Counted from the stretch's first letter, positions 25,292 to 32,249 are shown. The stretch is 64,000 nt of DNA from Candidatus Hydrogenedentota bacterium (GCA_045863335.1 BTVY01000040.1:1-64000), one strand, 5' to 3'. The notes: a model not told the origin generated them from the letters alone. Program-made: numbers and translations.

Positions 25292-26707
25292 TCAGGTTCC
25301 CATTTCCAGCAGGGTCCGCGCAATCTTGCCAATGGCCACGACAAAGGCCGCCGTGCGGAGGTCCGCCACCTCCTTCCGGCTGAGGTACACGTCGCGAATC
25401 TCGTTGTATGCCCTCCGCATGGTGTCGTCCAACCCGGAACGCACCAGGTCCACCTCGTCCGCGCCGTGTGTGATGCGCGCCTTCAGATGGGGCGGCGCAG
25501 ACGTGCCGGTCATTTCCTCGATGAGCTGAATGATGTGTTCTCCGCGCATGGCTTCCAATCGGTTTTCGATGCGTCCCAAGCGGATGTGCTGGAGGTTTTT
25601 GATCCACTCGAAGTAGGAGACCGTGACCCCGCCCGCGTTCAGGTACAGGTCCGGGATAACAAAGATCCCGTTCCTGCGCAAGATCTCGTCGCCCTTGTAC
25701 GTCACGGGACCGTTCGCCGCCTCGGCCACAACCCGCGCACGGATGCGTCCCGCGTTCTCGGCCGTAATCTGATTCTCCATGGCCGCGGGGATCAACACGT
25801 CGCACTCCATTTCAAGGATGGAGCGCCCTTCAACGACATGCTTGCCGGCGCTACAACCTTTGAGGCCGCCGGTTTCGCGCAAATGCTGGTAGACCGCTTC
25901 TACGTCCACGCCTTCGTCGTTGAGAAGGGCGCCGTCGCGCTCCACGATGGCGACGATGCGTGCGTCGTCCTCTTCGTGGAGGAACTTCGCAGCGTGGTAA
26001 CCGACGTTTCCGAGACCCTGGACGACGATTCGCTTCCCGGCGAGGTGCCCCTCCAAACCGGCGCGCTTCAGATCTTCAGGGTTCCGGAAAAACTCCCGCA
26101 ACCCGTATTGCACGCCGCGGCCCGTGGCTTCGAGCCGGCCGGCGATGCCGCCCTGGGTAACCGGTTTACCCGTGACGCAGGCGATGGCGTTGATGTCATG
26201 GGGATGGAGCCGCCGGTAGGTGTCGGCAATCCAGGCCATCTCGCGCGGGCCCGTGCCCATGTCCGGCGCCGGTACGTTCAGGCTCGGGCTGACGTAGCCT
26301 TTCTTCGTCAACTCCTCGGCAAACCGGCGCGTGATCCGTTCCAGCTCGCGTTCGTCGTACTCCTTGGGGTTGATGCACAACGCGCCCTTGGAACCCCCAA
26401 ATGGCACATCCACCAACGCGCACTTGTACGACATGAGAGCCGCCAGCGCCTCCACCTCGGCCTGGTCGGCGTGAGGCGCATAGCGAATGCCGCCTTTGGC
26501 GGGCAGGCGGTGTTCGCTGTGGACCGCGCGCCAACCGGTGAAGACTCGAAACCCGTTGCGAAATCCGATGGGGAAGCGCACTTGATAGACGTTGTTGCAC
26601 GTCTTGATCTGTTCGCCCAAACCCGGCGGAAGATCCATCGTTGCGACCGCGCGGTCGTACATGAGGTTGACGTTCTCAAGAAAGGACAGCTCGTTGCCGG
26701 CAGCCAT
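25292..26707 (-). CDS. gdhA: Glutamate dehydrogenase (Glu/Leu/Phe/Val DH family)
   Basis: PAKGGIRY, VPFGGSKG, VPAPDMGT, QGLGNVG, EAANGP, NAGGVTVSYFEW. Confidence 0.95.
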   Translation of the reverse strand: MAAGNELSFLENVNLMYDRAVATMDLPPGLGEQIKTCNNVYQVRFPIGFRNGFRVFTGWRAVHSEHRLPAKGGIRYAPHADQAEVEALAALMSYKCALVDVPFGGSKGALCINPKEYDERELERITRRFAEELTKKGYVSPSLNVPAPDMGTGPREMAWIADTYRRLHPHDINAIACVTGKPVTQGGIAGRLEATGRGVQYGLREFFRNPEDLKRAGLEGHLAGKRIVVQGLGNVGYHAAKFLHEEDDARIVAIVERDGALLNDEGVDVEAVYQHLRETGGLKGCSAGKHVVEGRSILEMECDVLIPAAMENQITAENAGRIRARVVAEAANGPVTYKGDEILRRNGIFVIPDLYLNAGGVTVSYFEWIKNLQHIRLGRIENRLEAMRGEHIIQLIEEMTGTSAPPHLKARITHGADEVDLVRSGLDDTMRRAYNEIRDVYLSRKEVADLRTAAFVVAIGKIARTLLEMGT

Positions 26708-26762
26708 CGACCCTCCAGCTTTGATGATTGCGATTGTGCCCGCGCGTCACCGCGAAAGGGAA

Positions 26763-29700
26763 CTATCCCTTCCCGCCTGCGATCAGCCTCCGCAGCTCCA
26801 CCGGCAGGTCCAGCGCCGCCCGGGCGTCTCCTTGTTTTATCCTCGCCACCGTGTCCGCCATGGTCAACACGAGCGTCGCCTCCGCGTCGTCATCGAATAT
26901 CCCGCGAAGCGTGTGGAGGCGCCGTTCGGTGCCGCGGATATCCATCTCGCTCACGCCTAGCTGCCGTTGCGTCCAAAGAATCAACCCGTGCAACAAGGAA
27001 GTGCGGTCCCGCCCGAAAATCGCGGCGGCCACCTGGACAGTGGCTTCCGTTCCCGTCATCCGCTCGAACAGTCCCGCAGCCAGTATCGCGCGCTCGGCCT
27101 GTGCCGGCTCGGTAGCGGTCACTGCCGCTTCCACCGCGCGGAAAAGTTCGCCTTCCACGCCGGCCTGACTCAGGAACAGCGCCCGCATCACCAGTGCGCG
27201 CGAGTGTCCGGGGCGAATGACCAGGGCGTCATCGCAAGCGGCCACGGCTTCCTCAAGTTGCCCGAGCCGCTCCAGCAGCGCTGCCTTCGCGACTCGCGCG
27301 GTCGCAGCAACGAATCGCAGGTTTCCGTGGACGGCGCGCCGGTATTGTTCGCTGACCAGATCGAGCGCCGCCATGGCTTCCGCGAACCGGTTTAGCCGTT
27401 CTAACGCGGCCGCGCGATTGAGCAGGGCGGCCGCAATCATCTCGGGCAACTGCACCGGGTTGCATTGCTGCACAACCTCGTCAAACGCGGTCGCGGCATC
27501 GTCGAACCGGGCCAGCTTCAGGTACGCAACGCCCTGATTGATCCGGGTCATCGCGAGGCACTCTCGAACCGCCGGGGTATCCGGCAGGCCGGTCAAGCGC
27601 AACACGGATTCGGCGGCCGCCGCGGCACCGTCGTACCGCCCTAGCATGAGCAACGCGTACACGCGCATCGCATGAGCCATCATCTGATTGGTGGCCGTCA
27701 TTTTCGCCGCGGCGGAGGATCGAAGCCAATCATCCAGCGCTGCCAGTCCGTCGTAGTTGCGATCTTGCGCGAACAGTCCCCCAGCTCGGAAGATCATGGC
27801 GAACCCGGTCTCCGTCTCCTCTCCGAGCGCGCAGATTTGCCGTTCCATTTCGGAATTCCGGAGCTCCGGGCTGCCGAGCGAAAGCTGGCGCGATGCGATT
27901 CGCTCACACCGCTTCTCCACCTGCTGGCCGGCATCCGGAACGAGCGCTACGACTGCCGCAGGGCTGTCGTCGGATGCGCCCATCGCGAAGGTGACGTCCA
28001 CCAGGCTCTCGAATCGAAACGCTTCCACGAACGGAAACCCGCGATCCTCGGACCGGCCCAGGCGGTCGACCTCGCACCAGCGGCGCGTTACACGCACCAG
28101 CAGCGGTAGCGCGGTGTCGCGGCCGTGCTTGAAATCCAGGACAAAGCGAATCAAGGGATCGCTGAGTTCATAGCAGATCTCGCGCCCGACTTGGGTACGA
28201 ACGAGAAACCCCGCGCGGAACAACTCCTGGAGCTGGCGAGAAACCGCCTGGGGCGTGAGAAACATATACCGGGCGAGTTCCGTCACGTTGACGGCCCGCC
28301 CTTGATGCTCCGCGAGGGCCTGCAAAATCTTGTATTGCTGCGGCGGCCGGTCGCCGATGCGGCGCTCGTAGGCGGGCGCAAGATCGCCGCGGGTCATCTG
28401 CAACACGGGCTCGACCAACGCGCTCAACCCTTTGACGGAAAGACACCGATCTAGCGAGGCGAGGACTCGGCAGTTTCCTCCGCTCAAGGTGTGGATGGTT
28501 TGTACCACGCCGGTCCGCTGCGGTTCGCGTAAGGCGGCGGCCAAGCCGCGATCTCCCCGTGCCGTCGCCAGGGAACACAGCAGATCGCGCGACGACTCCG
28601 CGGCCAACGCCGGCATGACGCAAGACCGAAAACGCTCGCGGAGCCAGCCGTGGAATCGCCCGGTGTCCAGCGGTTCCGATCCCGTGGTGCCCAGGAGAAT
28701 CACGGAAGGGTGCCTATCGAGAAACAACCGCAGGCTCTCAAGGGCGGCCTTGTTCCAGTTGCGAAGTAGCGTGCCCAGTCCTTCCAGGGCCACCACCGTG
28801 CACTGATTGCCAAAGCGTTCGCGGAACGCAGCCATCAATTCGTCAAAGCGATTCTCCGGTGCCGCCGCATCCAGCCGCGCCCGCAGCCTCTCGTTGGCGC
28901 TGTTCTCGGCTTGCATGCACGCGAGCAGTAGATCGAAGGGCGAATCCGCCACCTGTTCGGACCCCGTGAGATAGATAATCTTGCGGGGACGGCCGCTCAG
29001 GCCGAGCCCTTTTGCAAACCCCTTGGCCAGAACGGCAAGCGTATGGCTCTTGCCGCTACCTGCCGGACCCGCCAGAATGATGTGGTGCGGCGCGCCGGAC
29101 TGAACGCCCCGGGCTAGGGCCGTGCGCACGTCCATGACGACCTTCCGGTGCGGTGCGCTCAAGGTAGCTTCGAGCCAGTCGAACGACCGATTTGCCGGGT
29201 CAAGCGGATCGCCGGTTCCGCGTTCGGCCAAGGGCCCCGCGACAATCGAACGGTTCTCTGGATCGTTCAGCGGCTCGCCGGTCAAACGGTGTCGCACCAA
29301 CGCGGATTCGTCCGCGACCGCGTCCAGGGAAAAGGGAAACAGCGTCGCAAAGCCTCGATTGGCCAGATGGTCAGACGCGCTGCCAAGCGCCGGAGCCGAA
29401 TCCGGCTCCGGTTGGACCAAGTCTTCCGGGCCGAATAGCGAGATGTGTTCTTCCAACGTTCCCGGCTCGGCCCGATCGTCTTCTTCCAAGTCGCGGGTCG
29501 AGGGGATCTCGCTGACCCGGTCTGGCGACCACGGGGATTCCGCGAATCGTGCCATCCAATCCACGGTATTGCGAATCGCCGACGGGACGCTCTTGCATGC
29601 TTCCGCGACCGCCCCGGCTACAGCATGGATGTCGGTGCAGGGCACCTGTTCGCCCAGCAACAAGCAGCCGGCGAGGTATCGCGCGTCCGCAGGCGACAAT

Positions 29701-30383
29701 GCGGGCAATTCAAATGGCGGCAAGTCTTCCAGGGGCTGGCCTTGAAATCCTCCCCGACGCAACTTGTCGAGGATGCGCTGCAATCCCTGGGCGTCGCTCA
29801 GGATCATGCGCAACGCGGGATACTGGACGCGCAACTTGTGCAATGCTTCGAGGAGCCGGCCGGCTTCGTCTTCGGCCCACTCGCCCATGAGCGTATCCAG
29901 GAACGCCGGCAACTCGTCGATCATCAGCACCGGACAATCCGCCGCCCCCTTCTCCATGAGAATCCCGCAGGTCTTCGTGAGCACGGCTTCCCAGTCCGCT
30001 TCCAAACCCAGCTCGGCGCTACTTGCGACAGTAGCCGGACGCTGCGTATACCAGCGCCGCACTTGCTCTTCCCAAGAATCAGGAACGAAGCTGTGTTTGT
30101 GCAAGTGGCGGGTAAGCTCCCAGACGAATTCGCGCAGACTGCGGCACGCGCCCGCGTTGAACAGGGTGGGGCCTGCCCATTCCGGCCGCATGGCCAAAGC
30201 CAGGTTCAGGAACCAAGTTTTGCCGATGCGGCGGGGAGCAGACAGACGGGTGCTCCCCGATTTCACCTGCACCCACAGCGCCTCAACGAGTTCGTCCCGG
30301 CCAATTACCTGCGCGGGCGCGGAGCTTTCGTCGACGGCGCCCGCCTTGACGCTGAGTTCCCTAAATTCTTGAGAGGTAGGCAT
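26763..30383 (-). CDS. Double P-loop NTPase (STAND-like) with winged HTH and TPR repeats
   Basis: NTPase 1: IGRD, APRRIGKT, LMIDE. NTPase 2: GPAGSGKS, VVALEG, SGGNCR. wHTH VTELARYMFLTPQAVSRQLQEL...YELSDPL; C-terminal TPRs. Confidence 0.78.
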   Translation of the reverse strand: MPTSQEFRELSVKAGAVDESSAPAQVIGRDELVEALWVQVKSGSTRLSAPRRIGKTWFLNLALAMRPEWAGPTLFNAGACRSLREFVWELTRHLHKHSFVPDSWEEQVRRWYTQRPATVASSAELGLEADWEAVLTKTCGILMEKGAADCPVLMIDELPAFLDTLMGEWAEDEAGRLLEALHKLRVQYPALRMILSDAQGLQRILDKLRRGGFQGQPLEDLPPFELPALSPADARYLAGCLLLGEQVPCTDIHAVAGAVAEACKSVPSAIRNTVDWMARFAESPWSPDRVSEIPSTRDLEEDDRAEPGTLEEHISLFGPEDLVQPEPDSAPALGSASDHLANRGFATLFPFSLDAVADESALVRHRLTGEPLNDPENRSIVAGPLAERGTGDPLDPANRSFDWLEATLSAPHRKVVMDVRTALARGVQSGAPHHIILAGPAGSGKSHTLAVLAKGFAKGLGLSGRPRKIIYLTGSEQVADSPFDLLLACMQAENSANERLRARLDAAAPENRFDELMAAFRERFGNQCTVVALEGLGTLLRNWNKAALESLRLFLDRHPSVILLGTTGSEPLDTGRFHGWLRERFRSCVMPALAAESSRDLLCSLATARGDRGLAAALREPQRTGVVQTIHTLSGGNCRVLASLDRCLSVKGLSALVEPVLQMTRGDLAPAYERRIGDRPPQQYKILQALAEHQGRAVNVTELARYMFLTPQAVSRQLQELFRAGFLVRTQVGREICYELSDPLIRFVLDFKHGRDTALPLLVRVTRRWCEVDRLGRSEDRGFPFVEAFRFESLVDVTFAMGASDDSPAAVVALVPDAGQQVEKRCERIASRQLSLGSPELRNSEMERQICALGEETETGFAMIFRAGGLFAQDRNYDGLAALDDWLRSSAAAKMTATNQMMAHAMRVYALLMLGRYDGAAAAAESVLRLTGLPDTPAVRECLAMTRINQGVAYLKLARFDDAATAFDEVVQQCNPVQLPEMIAAALLNRAAALERLNRFAEAMAALDLVSEQYRRAVHGNLRFVAATARVAKAALLERLGQLEEAVAACDDALVIRPGHSRALVMRALFLSQAGVEGELFRAVEAAVTATEPAQAERAILAAGLFERMTGTEATVQVAAAIFGRDRTSLLHGLILWTQRQLGVSEMDIRGTERRLHTLRGIFDDDAEATLVLTMADTVARIKQGDARAALDLPVELRRLIAGGKG

Positions 30384-30687
30384 GCCATTCTTTCCCCGCA
30401 GTCAGCCCAAGTCATCGCCCAGAGAAAGACTTCAAAATTTGCCCCGATTCTCACGCAAGCCCTTGGAGAATCTAGGGTAAATGCCCCTTTCGAGGCGCGG
30501 CATGGTAGCAACCGTTTACAGGTTCGTCAAGAACAAAACGAGGGTGTAATTCATTGATAGAGCACAAAATAGATGACAGTTGAAATGGTGCACCACCATC
30601 TATTGGGGAGGCGAAGTTCAACTCGGTCAGTCGAGTCGGGCGAGCACCAGACGGATCGGACCGATCGGTCCGGTCCGTTCGATCCCT

Positions 30688-31269
30688 TCAAAACCACTTG
30701 GTTCCCGCCGGGGTCGGTTCCCATCGCTCCAAGACATCCAGCACATCTTGGGGCTCGTCAACGAAACGGTACAACCCACGGGATATGGGTTTCGCAAAAT
30801 GGTGCTCGTACAGATATTCGAAGAATGCGCGAAGGTGTGCGTAGAATCCAGCCGTGTTCAGAAATACAAGCGGTTTGTCGTGGAAGCGAAGTTGCTTAAG
30901 TGTAAGCACTTCAATAATTTCCTCCACCGTTCCGTAGCCGCCCGGCAGGGCTACGAAAGCGTCGGCATAGGATTCCATGATCGCCTTGCGCTCGCGGAGA
31001 TCCTTGGTCACGATCATCTCGTCGGCTTCCGTGTAGGCGAGTTCCAGATCGCGGAGCGCCGACGGGATTACGCCGATGACTTTGCTGCCGCCGTCGTGGA
31101 CCGATCGCGCCAGGGCGCCCATGAGCCCCACGTTCCCGCCGCCGTAGACGAGGGTCAAGCGCTGGCTCGCCATCAGCCTGCCCAACTCACGGGCGGCATC
31201 GAAATACACCGGCGCGACGGCGTCGCTCGATGAGCAGAATACGCAGATTGAACGGTATGAAATGGTCAC
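30688..31269 (-). CDS. LOG family nucleotide phosphoribohydrolase (TIGR00730)
   Basis: ICVFCSS, LVYGGGNVGLMG, RERK, LPGGYGTVEE; GTG 31269 with RBS GGAGA. Confidence 0.92.
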   Translation of the reverse strand: MTISYRSICVFCSSSDAVAPVYFDAARELGRLMASQRLTLVYGGGNVGLMGALARSVHDGGSKVIGVIPSALRDLELAYTEADEMIVTKDLRERKAIMESYADAFVALPGGYGTVEEIIEVLTLKQLRFHDKPLVFLNTAGFYAHLRAFFEYLYEHHFAKPISRGLYRFVDEPQDVLDVLERWEPTPAGTKWF

Positions 31270-31286
31270 TACGATGTCTCCGAAAT

Positions 31287-32249
31287 TCAAGACTTCTTCA
31301 TGAGATCTTCCAGTTGGCGCGGCGTGATGCGCCGGTGTGACTGGATGTGCGCCCGGGCCGCAATTGTTGACGGTAACGCGGCCCCAAGCGACAATCCCGC
31401 GCCAATGAGCACTCCGAAGGCTCGCGCCAGGCCGAATTCCGCACGTGCTGAAGAAAGCAGGCGGCGGGTCTGGTTGATGCGCTCCCCAACAATCGCCCCA
31501 AGGTGCCGCCGGATGAGCGACGCAGGGAAGTTCCGCAACACGAGCAAGGCGTGGTTGCGCCAGCACTGCCGCGACCGCCACCACGTCTTGCCGCCGAGGC
31601 TAGCCGAACCCACATGCCAGGCCAGGGCTTCCGGCACCAATTGCGCGTCGAATCCCGCGAGCCGCGCGCGCAGGTTCAGGTCGCTGTCTTCGAAATATGC
31701 GACGAAGCGTTCCTCCAGAAGCCCCACGCGATCAAATACCGCGCGCCGGTACAACCCGGCTCCCGCTGAGACGCCAAATATGCGCAGCGGCAGTTCGAAG
31801 GCGTCGCGCCTGCACCGGAACCCGATGCTTTCGGGCCGGCCATTTACGCGCTGGAGGTCGCCCGCGCCGTACACGATGTCCGGGTCGTCCCGGAAAAAGA
31901 CCAGGGGAGCGAACAAGGCGGCATCGCTCGATGCGGCCGCCGCACAGAGTTTCTCCAGACAGTCCGGCGCGAGCGTCATGTCATTGTTGAGTAGAAAGAT
32001 CAGATCGCCTTTCGCTGCGCGAATACCCGCGTTCACGGCCACACAAAAACCGGAGTTGCAGTCCAATCGGATGACGCGTACGCCGGGATGATCGTTCGCG
32101 AGGAAGGCAGTCGTCTCATCGGTCGAGCCGTCGTCGACCACGACGATCTCGTCTGCGGGGCGCGTCTGCCGGCGCAACGACGCAAGGCACTCCGCAAGTA
32201 TCTCGCGGCCGTTCCACGTAGGGATCACGATGGACAGCGTGGCGCTCAT
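31287..32249 (-). CDS. Glycosyltransferase family 2
   Basis: SIVIPTWNG, VVDDGSTD, LLNND, YFEDSDL. Confidence 0.92.
   Translation of the reverse strand: MSATLSIVIPTWNGREILAECLASLRRQTRPADEIVVVDDGSTDETTAFLANDHPGVRVIRLDCNSGFCVAVNAGIRAAKGDLIFLLNNDMTLAPDCLEKLCAAAASSDAALFAPLVFFRDDPDIVYGAGDLQRVNGRPESIGFRCRRDAFELPLRIFGVSAGAGLYRRAVFDRVGLLEERFVAYFEDSDLNLRARLAGFDAQLVPEALAWHVGSASLGGKTWWRSRQCWRNHALLVLRNFPASLIRRHLGAIVGERINQTRRLLSSARAEFGLARAFGVLIGAGLSLGAALPSTIAARAHIQSHRRITPRQLEDLMKKS

Follow-up and report, generated by a model that had tools for sequence, protein, structure and literature searches.

A fused derivative of a widespread pair of paralogous AAA+ ATPase genes in Candidatus Hydrogenedentota

A stretch of 64,000 nucleotides from the Candidatus Hydrogenedentota bacterium GCA_045863335.1 (BTVY01000040.1:1-64000), referred to here as the window, carries on its minus strand a gene for a protein of 1206 residues, in which two AAA+ ATPase modules, a winged helix, and an array of tetratricopeptide repeats (TPRs) follow one another. 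This protein is a fused derivative of a canonical pair of adjacent genes, here called A and B, which are joined in one continuous frame, with the winged helix of A gone. The A/B pair is widespread, unnamed, and unstudied, and has the make-up of an NTPase switch of the STAND/ORC kind, which carries a TPR arm and comes with a paralogous ATPase as its obligatory partner. An earlier reading of the sequence alone had pointed to a two-gene module, formed by an ATPase and an ATPase-TPR protein, and had proposed that the two are fused here, a proposal that is now upheld by the A family, by a hidden Markov model (HMM) of B, and by a C-terminal domain shared with the split B proteins. The same reading also offered the protein as a candidate defence sensor, which has fared less well.

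The first half of the protein is a member of a large ATPase family whose proteins stand alone. With the N-terminal 330 residues as query, phmmer, run exhaustively against 1.84 billion representatives, recovered 430 clusters at E<=1e-3, of which 189 reached E<=1e-10 and 12 reached E<=1e-30. Most of the matches are 380–410 residues long, that is, stand-alone proteins of approximately 390 residues that are annotated, where named, as “hypothetical”. The profile of this A family matches the window protein with an E of 1.1e-79, and the residues R29, R51, R52, G54, K55, D156, R192, and G200 are invariant among 78 aligned members, with E157 being kept in at least 90% of them. The split A proteins (408 residues) carry a C-terminal DDHY..RFK..RRWW domain of their own, a winged helix, which is absent from the fused protein, where the acidic linker stands in its place. 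The A-family profile has marginal matches in the PDB (2fna, E 0.0087, and 2qen, E 0.056), a search of PDB sequences that used only the N-terminal half found chance-level matches to chromate reductase and no others, the ESM Atlas provided generic names only for an A protein and nothing for the C-terminal domain, and NCBIfam gave no matches for five A proteins.

A single peptide pattern located A-family loci in at least 263 species-level genomes, which span the Planctomycetota, Cyanobacteria, Gammaproteobacteria, Verrucomicrobiota, Binatia, Acidobacteriota, Hydrogenedentota, and others. Cultured bacteria are among the carriers, such as Anabaena azotica FACHB-119, Fischerella muscicola, Thiorhodococcus drewsii AZ1, and Methylolobus aquaticus. 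Gene order was examined by running HMMs on the six-frame translations of 80 of the 263 confirmed genome loci, together with 80 metagenome loci. In the genome loci, A is followed by B within 600 nucleotides in 76 cases and further downstream in two (L056 and L089), with the other two lying at a contig edge, while B follows within 600 nucleotides in 61 of the metagenome loci, the remaining 19 being without downstream sequence. Split gene pairs, the form in which the sequence-only reading had expected homologues to occur, are thus present in all 139 loci that have downstream sequence, always with B after A; no locus has room for B and lacks it, and none of the 160 split-family loci carries a fused gene. 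The distance from the stop codon of A to the start of B, estimated with B start codons that were picked heuristically, has a median of -1 nucleotide, and the two genes overlap or abut in 73 of 135 pairs, with a 4-nucleotide overlap in 55. No third gene is conserved beside the split pairs, and their neighbors vary among phyla. Two separate A/B loci (L054 and L055) were observed in one Calothrix metagenome-assembled genome, the sole such case among the 80 genome loci. In a number of related cyanobacterial loci (for example, L057:11144-13144), a Ser/Thr kinase fused to an AAA_16 NTPase is found one or two genes downstream of A/B, that is, a second STAND-like signaling gene near some of the cyanobacterial pairs.

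The downstream genes form one cluster of open reading frames (ORFs) with a median length of 835 residues, directly downstream of A and on the same strand in 78 of the 80 genome loci, and encode proteins of approximately 800–1250 residues. A Pfam scan of 14 of these 78 B proteins revealed TPR arrays in all 14, AAA_16 or AAA_22 near the N-terminus in 13, and a winged helix-turn-helix (wHTH) of the MarR/ArsR type at about residues 300–360 in 13, and this succession of AAA_16, wHTH, and TPR is that of the second half of the window protein. When an HMM is built from the first 470 residues of 56 B proteins, it matches the window protein at residues 404–778 with an E of 4.6e-47, computed for a nominal database of one million sequences, in an alignment that takes in Walker A and the single-acid Walker B, the lid motif (GGNHR/GGNCR), and the winged helix. 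The profile of the B-family alignment gives an E of 3.4e-114, although this alignment includes the window sequence. Across 45 B-family sequences, G439, G442, G444, K445, and E534 are invariant, and the Walker B has the consensus LLLLxEN. The VVALEG of the window protein is, then, as atypical as the sequence-only reading had it, and this is a trait of the family, given the invariance of E534 and the shared consensus. The winged helix is also present in the consensus of these 45 sequences, and the only significant PDB sequence matches of the B-family profile are repressors of the ArsR/SmtB type (NmtR and SmtB) and AspA.

The C-terminal end of the protein is likewise shared, since an HMM of its last 131 residues also recognizes the C-terminal ends of those split B proteins that are closest to it (L100 at 1e-17), and most of the 55 B proteins listed show a related tail of the LLxLPxExR type, ..GD.RVLLELPiEER.LL (here GDARAALDLPVELRRL). 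In NCBIfam, three B proteins had generic sub-threshold matches only, and a short Clostridium B protein had none. On plasmid pCM008-C of Clostridium tagluense (L172:5890-8650), an A gene of 392 residues, annotated as an “ATP-binding protein”, overlaps a B gene of 530–531 residues, which has the core of AAA+ and winged helix without the long TPR array. The wider family can thus do without the TPR arm.

Within the window protein, the ORF of 1206 residues, all the motifs listed by the sequence-only reading, and the order of domains that it gave (NTPase 1, linker, NTPase 2, winged HTH, and TPR array) were recovered as described (Table 1). When residues 1–330 are scanned alone, no Pfam family is found for NTPase 1, and its AF2 model, with a predicted local distance difference test (pLDDT) of 87.6, is an AAA+ domain with a lid, in which G54, K55, and T56, as well as D156 and E157, are invariant in nine of the nine full-length homologues. 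The linker is indeed acidic, with 22 D/E against 8 K/R in the 105 residues of the segment 296–400; its pLDDT falls below 50 at residues 305–327, and it is the least conserved part of the alignment of full-length homologues. In the second module, AAA_16 (residues 422–557) is barely at the Pfam threshold (32.7 bits, for a cut-off of 32.6). The GGNCR motif is invariant in the nine full-length homologues, and its G and R are invariant in the 45 B-family sequences, where the consensus is GGNHR; R639 of this motif is a candidate sensor-2-like arginine, by analogy with the Cdc6 and STAND motifs. The winged helix has clearer matches in Pfam, to MarR_2 at residues 680–731 (38.5 bits, cut-off 27, E 1.3e-9) and to MarR (29.4 bits, cut-off 24.6), and reaches 39.4 bits with the ArsR/SmtB model of NCBIfam, under the cut-off of 55. 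The Pfam TPR repeats lie between residues 950 and 1068. No LuxR/GerE or BTAD domain is matched by Pfam in the 1206 residues (Trans_reg_C has an E of 0.0099, below threshold), and, in agreement with the sequence-only reading, which saw no nuclease or TIR effector, Pfam shows no nuclease, TIR, SIR2, or protease domain.

The two families are, by comparison of their alignments, distant paralogues, with hhalign giving a probability of 96.6% and an E of 6.7e-10 over 312 columns that run through the AAA+ domain, the lid, and the winged helix. The structural models place both halves in the same neighborhood. In VIA-align, half A is closest to 2qen_A (Z 18.7), followed by 2qby_A (Z 16.8), 2fna_B (Z 16.2), and MalT (8bob_D, Z 15.8), and, lower, by TnsC (Z 15.4), Avs3 (Z 14.2), and BrxC (Z 12.8). 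Half B, whose AF2 model of residues 400–830 has a pLDDT of 75.6, is closest to 2qen_A (Z 20.7) and 2fna_B (Z 19.2), followed by the NLRs of wheat and Arabidopsis (9h2l_A, Z 19.1, and 9qlv_A, Z 18.8), Cdc6/Orc1 (Z 18.2 and 17.6), and, lower, BrxC (Z 14.1), with NLR, Apaf-1, CED-4, and Avs5 all being among its structural matches. The winged helix alone matches SmtB at Z 11.9. The structures 2qen, 2fna, 2qby, and 1w5s match both halves at Z 16–21, and the top Foldseek match of both is the DNA-bound Cdc6/Orc1 heterodimer 2qby_A (E 5.6e-6 for A and 4.6e-11 for B). The modules sit at the junction of the ORC/Cdc6, PF01637, and STAND branches, with no assignment to a single branch. The STAND label of the sequence-only reading holds in part, in that the NLRs come within about 1–2 Z units for half B, but the best matches are of the PF01637 type, followed by Cdc6/Orc1.

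Given this, A and B are proposed to form a ligand-gated, ATP-driven, heteromeric AAA+ switch with a DNA-binding output, most likely a regulator, a proposal in which confidence is evenly balanced. There is strong indirect evidence that A and B would act in one complex, as they are fused here, always adjacent elsewhere, and often translationally coupled, and the two may therefore work jointly as a heteromeric ATP-driven switch. Module A would probably be the hydrolyzing partner, because it has a complete Walker A (AxxxxGKT) and an hhhhDE Walker B, whereas module B, with the single acidic residue of its Walker B, would probably switch slowly or do no more than bind. The TPR array, together with the C-terminal domain, may recognize a ligand, either a protein or a peptide, and gate the assembly or the state of the nucleotide. 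The output would most likely be DNA binding by the strongly constrained ArsR-like winged helix, leading to the regulation of transcription or another DNA transaction, rather than to abortive-infection immunity, in a logic akin to that of the STAND regulators of the MalT/AfsR type or the archaeal Orc1/Cdc6 heterodimers. A role in DNA binding is somewhat more likely for this winged helix than that of a purely structural winged-helix domain (WHD), given its ArsR-like sequence signal and its strong constraint.

A number of observations weigh against this proposal. The main one is that four of the five genomes of the sister genus dispense with every winged helix, and, as both the winged helix of B and that of A itself are lost, the reduced proteins cannot act through one. 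The role of the winged helix could also be largely structural, within the nucleotide switch, as is that of the WHD in STAND proteins, rather than one of reading DNA. No conserved target gene or operator was found beside the module, whose neighbors differ among phyla, and the patchy spread across phyla, together with the variable length of the TPR region, would also fit a conflict system. A second version of the two-subunit sensor can be put forward tentatively, in which the slow, TPR-bearing subunit senses a ligand and recruits or gates the hydrolyzing PF01637-like ATPase on DNA; this would be an undescribed system, a bacterial ORC-like heterodimer repurposed either as a signal-controlled DNA switch or as an effector-less system of DNA surveillance or immunity. 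In this version, the large PF01637/AAA_35 group of “ATP-binding proteins”, whose role is unknown, would gain its first functional handle.

The history of the fusion bears on these readings. The frame of 1206 residues is a genuine coding sequence, given that full-length orthologues are found in all five other genomes of the genus (46–98% identity, one of them split over two contigs) and that the ratio of nonsynonymous to synonymous substitution rates (dN/dS) is about 0.1. By the Nei-Gojobori method, this ratio is 0.10 in the closest complete pair and 0.14–0.16 in two others, values that place the gene under purifying selection, with dS being saturated in the distant pair. The winged helix is the most constrained segment (0.04–0.06) in two of three pairs, and the TPR region has values of 0.10–0.21. 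The LOG gene is adjacent in the five other genomes and gdhA in two (G005 and G004), and the genome of the window has one copy of each half. In this genus, then, the fused gene is a vertically inherited, single-copy gene with its own promoter.

In the Hydrogenedentota as a whole, an A-family gene (E<=1e-10) is present in 18 of 135 genomes and 8 of 66 genera. Six carriers have ordinary split A and B pairs, a seventh copy lies at a contig end, the full fusion is found in all six genomes of the genus of the window, and a fused or derived gene occurs in all five genomes of a sister genus. Word-index searches for homologues with the whole protein or its C-terminal half had found only fused proteins of the Hydrogenedentes, two partial ones, and one TPR protein; taken by themselves, these searches would have given the false impression that the C-terminal half lacks stand-alone relatives. 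In a maximum-likelihood tree of 47 A-domain sequences, a selected and non-exhaustive set drawn with a midpoint root for display only, the 16 fused or derived rows group together (ultrafast bootstrap/SH-aLRT 100/99) inside a split clade, which has 22 rows and A proteins of approximately 408 residues (100/99). The two fusion-bearing genera are sisters, and, in the second, the reduced and the fully fused forms are sister groups. As the fused and derived rows form a single supported clade nested in the split clade, the fusion arose once within it, in a lineage common to two genera of the Hydrogenedentota, and the sister genus later lost the second ATPase and the winged helix in most of its members.

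In four of the five sister-genus genomes, the product is an open frame of approximately 807–887 residues, composed of A, linker, TPR, and the C-terminal domain, without the B ATPase and the winged helix (L007:1396-3924 of G015, for example, and L183-L185), while the fifth has an open frame of 1265 residues, in which the B core is matched only weakly (E 5e-5). The part conserved across the fused lineage is thus the ATPase with the TPR, and the reduced forms speak for a factor of protein remodeling or assembly, in which a client would be held by the TPR array together with the C-terminal domain, and the pair of AAA+ modules would serve as a chaperone, loader, or scaffold, DNA binding being dispensable. 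The TPR arrays are generic protein-binding scaffolds, which suits such a role, and TnsC, MuB, RFC, and the clamp loaders are among the structural neighbors at Z 12–15. This reading is nevertheless distinctly unlikely, as the winged helix is kept in the consensus of 45 B sequences and is the most constrained segment in two of the three pairs, and the sister-genus forms, which have a degenerate Walker B (ILDG) in module A, may be decaying or changed in function.

The defence reading was examined through the families of PADLOC and through the neighbors of the split pairs. In this reading, which comes from the likeness to NLR and Avs proteins, the protein is an anti-phage or conflict sensor, in which the TPR array recognizes an invader protein, the ATPases oligomerize, and module A or the winged helix provides an output without an effector. 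Its layout, with a nucleotide-binding domain, a helical domain, and a WHD followed by a repeat sensor, is that seen in the AF2 model of residues 400–830 and in the TPR matches, and half B comes near its best Z score in its matches to the NLR resistosomes, with half A also matching Avs3, as given above. The spread, in 8 of the 66 genera of the phylum and in many phyla overall, is patchy, and AAA+ proteins of the ORC/Cdc6 clade with a wHTH are described in defence, such as BrxC in the relevant passages of PMC12839542. In PADLOC, the fused protein has a weak match to the candidate PDC-S27 (E 5.8e-5, residues 25–107), its best Avs2 match has an E of 0.017, and its other matches are to the HTH or P-loop only. 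No PADLOC family fits the fused protein, any of 11 A proteins, or any of 14 B proteins, which had generic HTH and TPR matches only, and the protein has none of the effector domains (nuclease, TIR, SIR2, or protease) that a conflict sensor might be expected to carry.

Within two genes of the split pairs, 179 neighbor clusters were found, and 148 representatives were run through PADLOC, with 16 having a match at E<=1e-5, few of them convincing, in a count that has no matched control. Convincing defence genes lie beside only a handful of loci, namely, a type II restriction-modification system at L021, a PtuB-like HNH protein and a HEC-01A/AriA-like ATPase at L068, a TIR protein at L070, and matches to Uma2 (PDC-S03), PLD, and patatin; a GajA-like fragment at L064 is a further neighbor of a defence type. 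Several of the other matches are housekeeping look-alikes or otherwise misnamed. The “mad2” beside Microcoleus loci is the rRNA methyltransferase RsmB, the “PDC-M43B” neighbor is a histidine kinase, the PD-T4-6 neighbors are the Ser/Thr kinase fused to AAA_16, all three being left out of the tally of defence genes, and a TnpB-like protein is a further look-alike. A Pfam family (E<=1e-8) was assigned to 36 of 52 neighbor representatives, and 33 of the 36 are metabolic, transport, translation, or regulatory proteins, for example, glutaminase, RsmB, PanC-Cmk, RibBA, DHFR, LexA, MutS2, catalase, AcrB, and H+-PPase.

The family has no matches in 50,697 phage records and four distant matches among 72,556 plasmids, and the gene stands at a syntenic site, in single copy, in all six genomes of the genus, with a constrained TPR region. 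Nothing positive supports defence, and a gene so stable, syntenic, single-copy, and constrained argues against it. The defence or Avs-like role proposed from the sequence alone is thus not supported, given the PADLOC families, the mostly housekeeping neighbors, and the purifying selection, and an NLR/Avs-like conflict sensor is considered unlikely. The refutation that the sequence-only reading had set out, in which the halves would be unrelated to STAND NTPases and the homologues would have no defence context, came about by approximately half, given that a relationship to STAND/ORC NTPases does exist for both halves, whereas no clear defence context surrounds the homologues.

A further possibility is a role in the initiation or partition of a replicon or mobile element, in the manner of Orc1/Cdc6. 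The Cdc6/Orc1 heterodimer on origin DNA is the top Foldseek match of both halves, the winged helix of the B family resembles that of AspA, a plasmid partition protein, and the A/B pair of the Clostridium tagluense plasmid lies about 2.8 kb downstream of a replication initiation gene. Bacteria initiate the replication of their chromosomes with DnaA, however, and nearly all the copies are chromosomal, as seen in the phage and plasmid counts above, lying among housekeeping genes with no integrase or transposase consistently nearby, which makes this role highly improbable.

The regulatory switch proposed above has a promoter of its own to consider. As the sequence-only reading had stated, the gene lies between gdhA and a LOG gene, and the region upstream has a lower GC content (0.53 at 30500-30999, against 0.60–0.67 around it), which corresponds to an intergenic region of 304 bp. 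The sigma-70-like promoter of this region (Table 1) was the one site found in a consensus scan, for a shuffle mean of 0.6, and the upstream alignment shows it to be conserved in six of the six genus genomes, even at 47% protein identity. Upstream of the -35 box, at about 30540-30600 on the minus strand, a block that reads CTGTCATC.ATTT.G.G.C..ATC is kept in all six genomes, unlike the remaining intergenic region, which has diverged across the genus. This CTGTCATC block could be an operator or a UP-like element, judging by its conservation, and no palindromic operator was seen by eye in the conserved promoter region of the six-genome alignment, in what was an informal test.

At the other end of the gene, 55 nucleotides (26708-26762) separate its stop codon from the start of gdhA, no terminator-like site was found on the minus strand of this gap, and one contig of an RNA library bridges the junction (25936-27515). 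Transcriptional read-through into gdhA is possible. Contigs from two RNA sequencing libraries of different studies cover parts of the gene, which indicates presence only, as contigs reveal neither transcription nor strand or level, and DNA carry-over is possible. In the LOG ORF, approximately 105 residues precede the LOG/SLOG domain (Pfam 113–283), and the tblastn matches to more distant members of the genus start only at residue 105–108; for this reason, the true start of LOG may lie downstream, or its close relatives may have an N-terminal extension. More distant neighbors in the window include a glycosyltransferase, a methyltransferase, a GHMP kinase, a BNR-repeat protein, and a protein with a nitroreductase domain.

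Table 1. Coordinates, in the window, of the gene for the 1206-residue protein, its domains and motifs, its promoter, and its flanking genes.
Feature	Position	Strand	Basis or remark
Whole coding sequence, 1206 residues plus stop	26763..30383	(-)	ATG-started ORF; full-length homologues exist
Module A, AAA+ ATPase with lid, PF01637/Cdc6-like, residues 1–300	29484..30383	(-)	AF2, VIA-align, A family
Walker A of module A, APRRIGKT, residues 49–56	30216..30239	(-)	Alignments
Walker B of module A, LMIDE, residues 153–157	29913..29927	(-)	Alignments
Acidic, weakly conserved linker, residues 301–403	29175..29483	(-)	pLDDT, alignment
Module B, AAA+ with lid, residues 404–670	28374..29174	(-)	B HMM, AF2, VIA-align
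Walker A of module B, GPAGSGKS, residues 439–446	29046..29069	(-)	Alignments
Walker B of module B, VVALEG, residues 530–535, lone acidic E534	28779..28796	(-)	Alignments
GGNCR lid motif, residues 635–639	28467..28481	(-)	Alignments
ArsR/MarR-like winged helix, residues 671–778, HTH core 682–740	28050..28373	(-)	Pfam, PDB profile, structure
Helical region and TPR array, residues 779–1075	27159..28049	(-)	TPR_2, TPR_1, TPR_14, and TPR_16 matches
Conserved C-terminal domain, residues 1076–1206, ending GDARAALDLPVELRRL	26766..27158	(-)	HMM of the region
Sigma-70-like promoter, TTGACG-17-TACCAT with extended TG	30502..30530	(-)	About 120 nucleotides upstream of the start codon
gdhA	25292-26707	(-)	Downstream neighbor of the gene
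LOG gene	30688-31584	(-)	Upstream neighbor of the gene

No curated model specific to A or B was found in Pfam, NCBIfam, or PADLOC, and no description of the pair was found in the literature searched. The fusion is a Rosetta-stone case, which links families that are labeled only as “ATP-binding protein” and as “tetratricopeptide repeat protein” or “MarR family regulator”. If the proposed heteromeric AAA+ switch with a DNA output is correct, it would represent a new wiring of the STAND/ORC theme, in which two paralogous NTPases divide the labor, and would offer a point of departure for the function of PF01637-like ATPases. The case also has a lesson for annotation, in that the name “MarR family transcriptional regulator” misleads for proteins of approximately 1200 residues, and an NLR-like architecture alone is insufficient to call defence.

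This MarR name, which is that of the public homologues in Candidatus Hydrogenedentes, covers one domain only. The window protein shares with the MarR/ArsR factors a winged HTH, ArsR/SmtB-like and above the MarR_2 threshold, but is not a small dimeric repressor, as its wHTH takes up approximately 60 of the 1206 residues, between the AAA+ lid and the TPRs. The best structural match of both halves is to the archaeal ATPases of the PF01637 type (PABY2304, 2qen, and SSO1545, 2fna), which have the same AAA+ domain, helical lid, and C-terminal winged helix, and the xRRxGKT variant of the Walker A of module A resembles what we take to be the motif of that family. The relation in sequence is marginal, with no PF01637 match in Pfam, and these archaeal proteins, unlike A/B, are single-gene products without TPRs. 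As the function of the PF01637 structures is not known, the match gives no role for A/B.

The archaeal Orc1/Cdc6 proteins, such as Cdc6-1 and Cdc6-3 on origin DNA (2qby), are likewise a pair of paralogues, built of AAA+, lid, and winged helix, that work jointly; the winged helix that follows their lid reads DNA, and half A of the window protein has lost its own. By sequence, the protein falls far from this family (TIGR02928, E 0.0055, 15.6 bits for a cut-off of 181.3). The A/B pair differs in that one partner has a TPR array and a C-terminal domain, in the lone acidic residue in the Walker B of B, and in being bacterial, chromosomal, and not at an origin. With MalT, AfsR/LAL, Avs, and the plant NLRs, the protein shares the P-loop NTPase, the helical domain, the winged helix, and the C-terminal TPR sensor, but, unlike MalT/LAL/AfsR and Avs, it has neither a LuxR or BTAD domain nor an effector domain, and its match to NACHT (E 0.04) does not place it in the NACHT/NB-ARC group. 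To our knowledge, the MalT, AfsR, Avs, and NLR families do not require a second, paralogous ATPase as a partner.

In the passages of PMC12839542 that deal with the BREX proteins, BrxC is an AAA+ protein of the ORC/Cdc6 clade with a wHTH, which works with BrxB, an inactive STAND protein, so that an ORC/Cdc6-like AAA+ domain followed by a wHTH, and a second STAND-like protein, are common to both systems. Unlike in BREX, A/B has no conserved neighbor from that system, such as PglZ or the methyltransferase, and there is no PADLOC match to BREX. The P-loops are also kept in both A and B, and a TPR arm is found in place of the C-terminal domains of BrxC. Even so, BrxC/BrxB, as presented in those passages of PMC12839542, is the closest described concept to the A/B pair.

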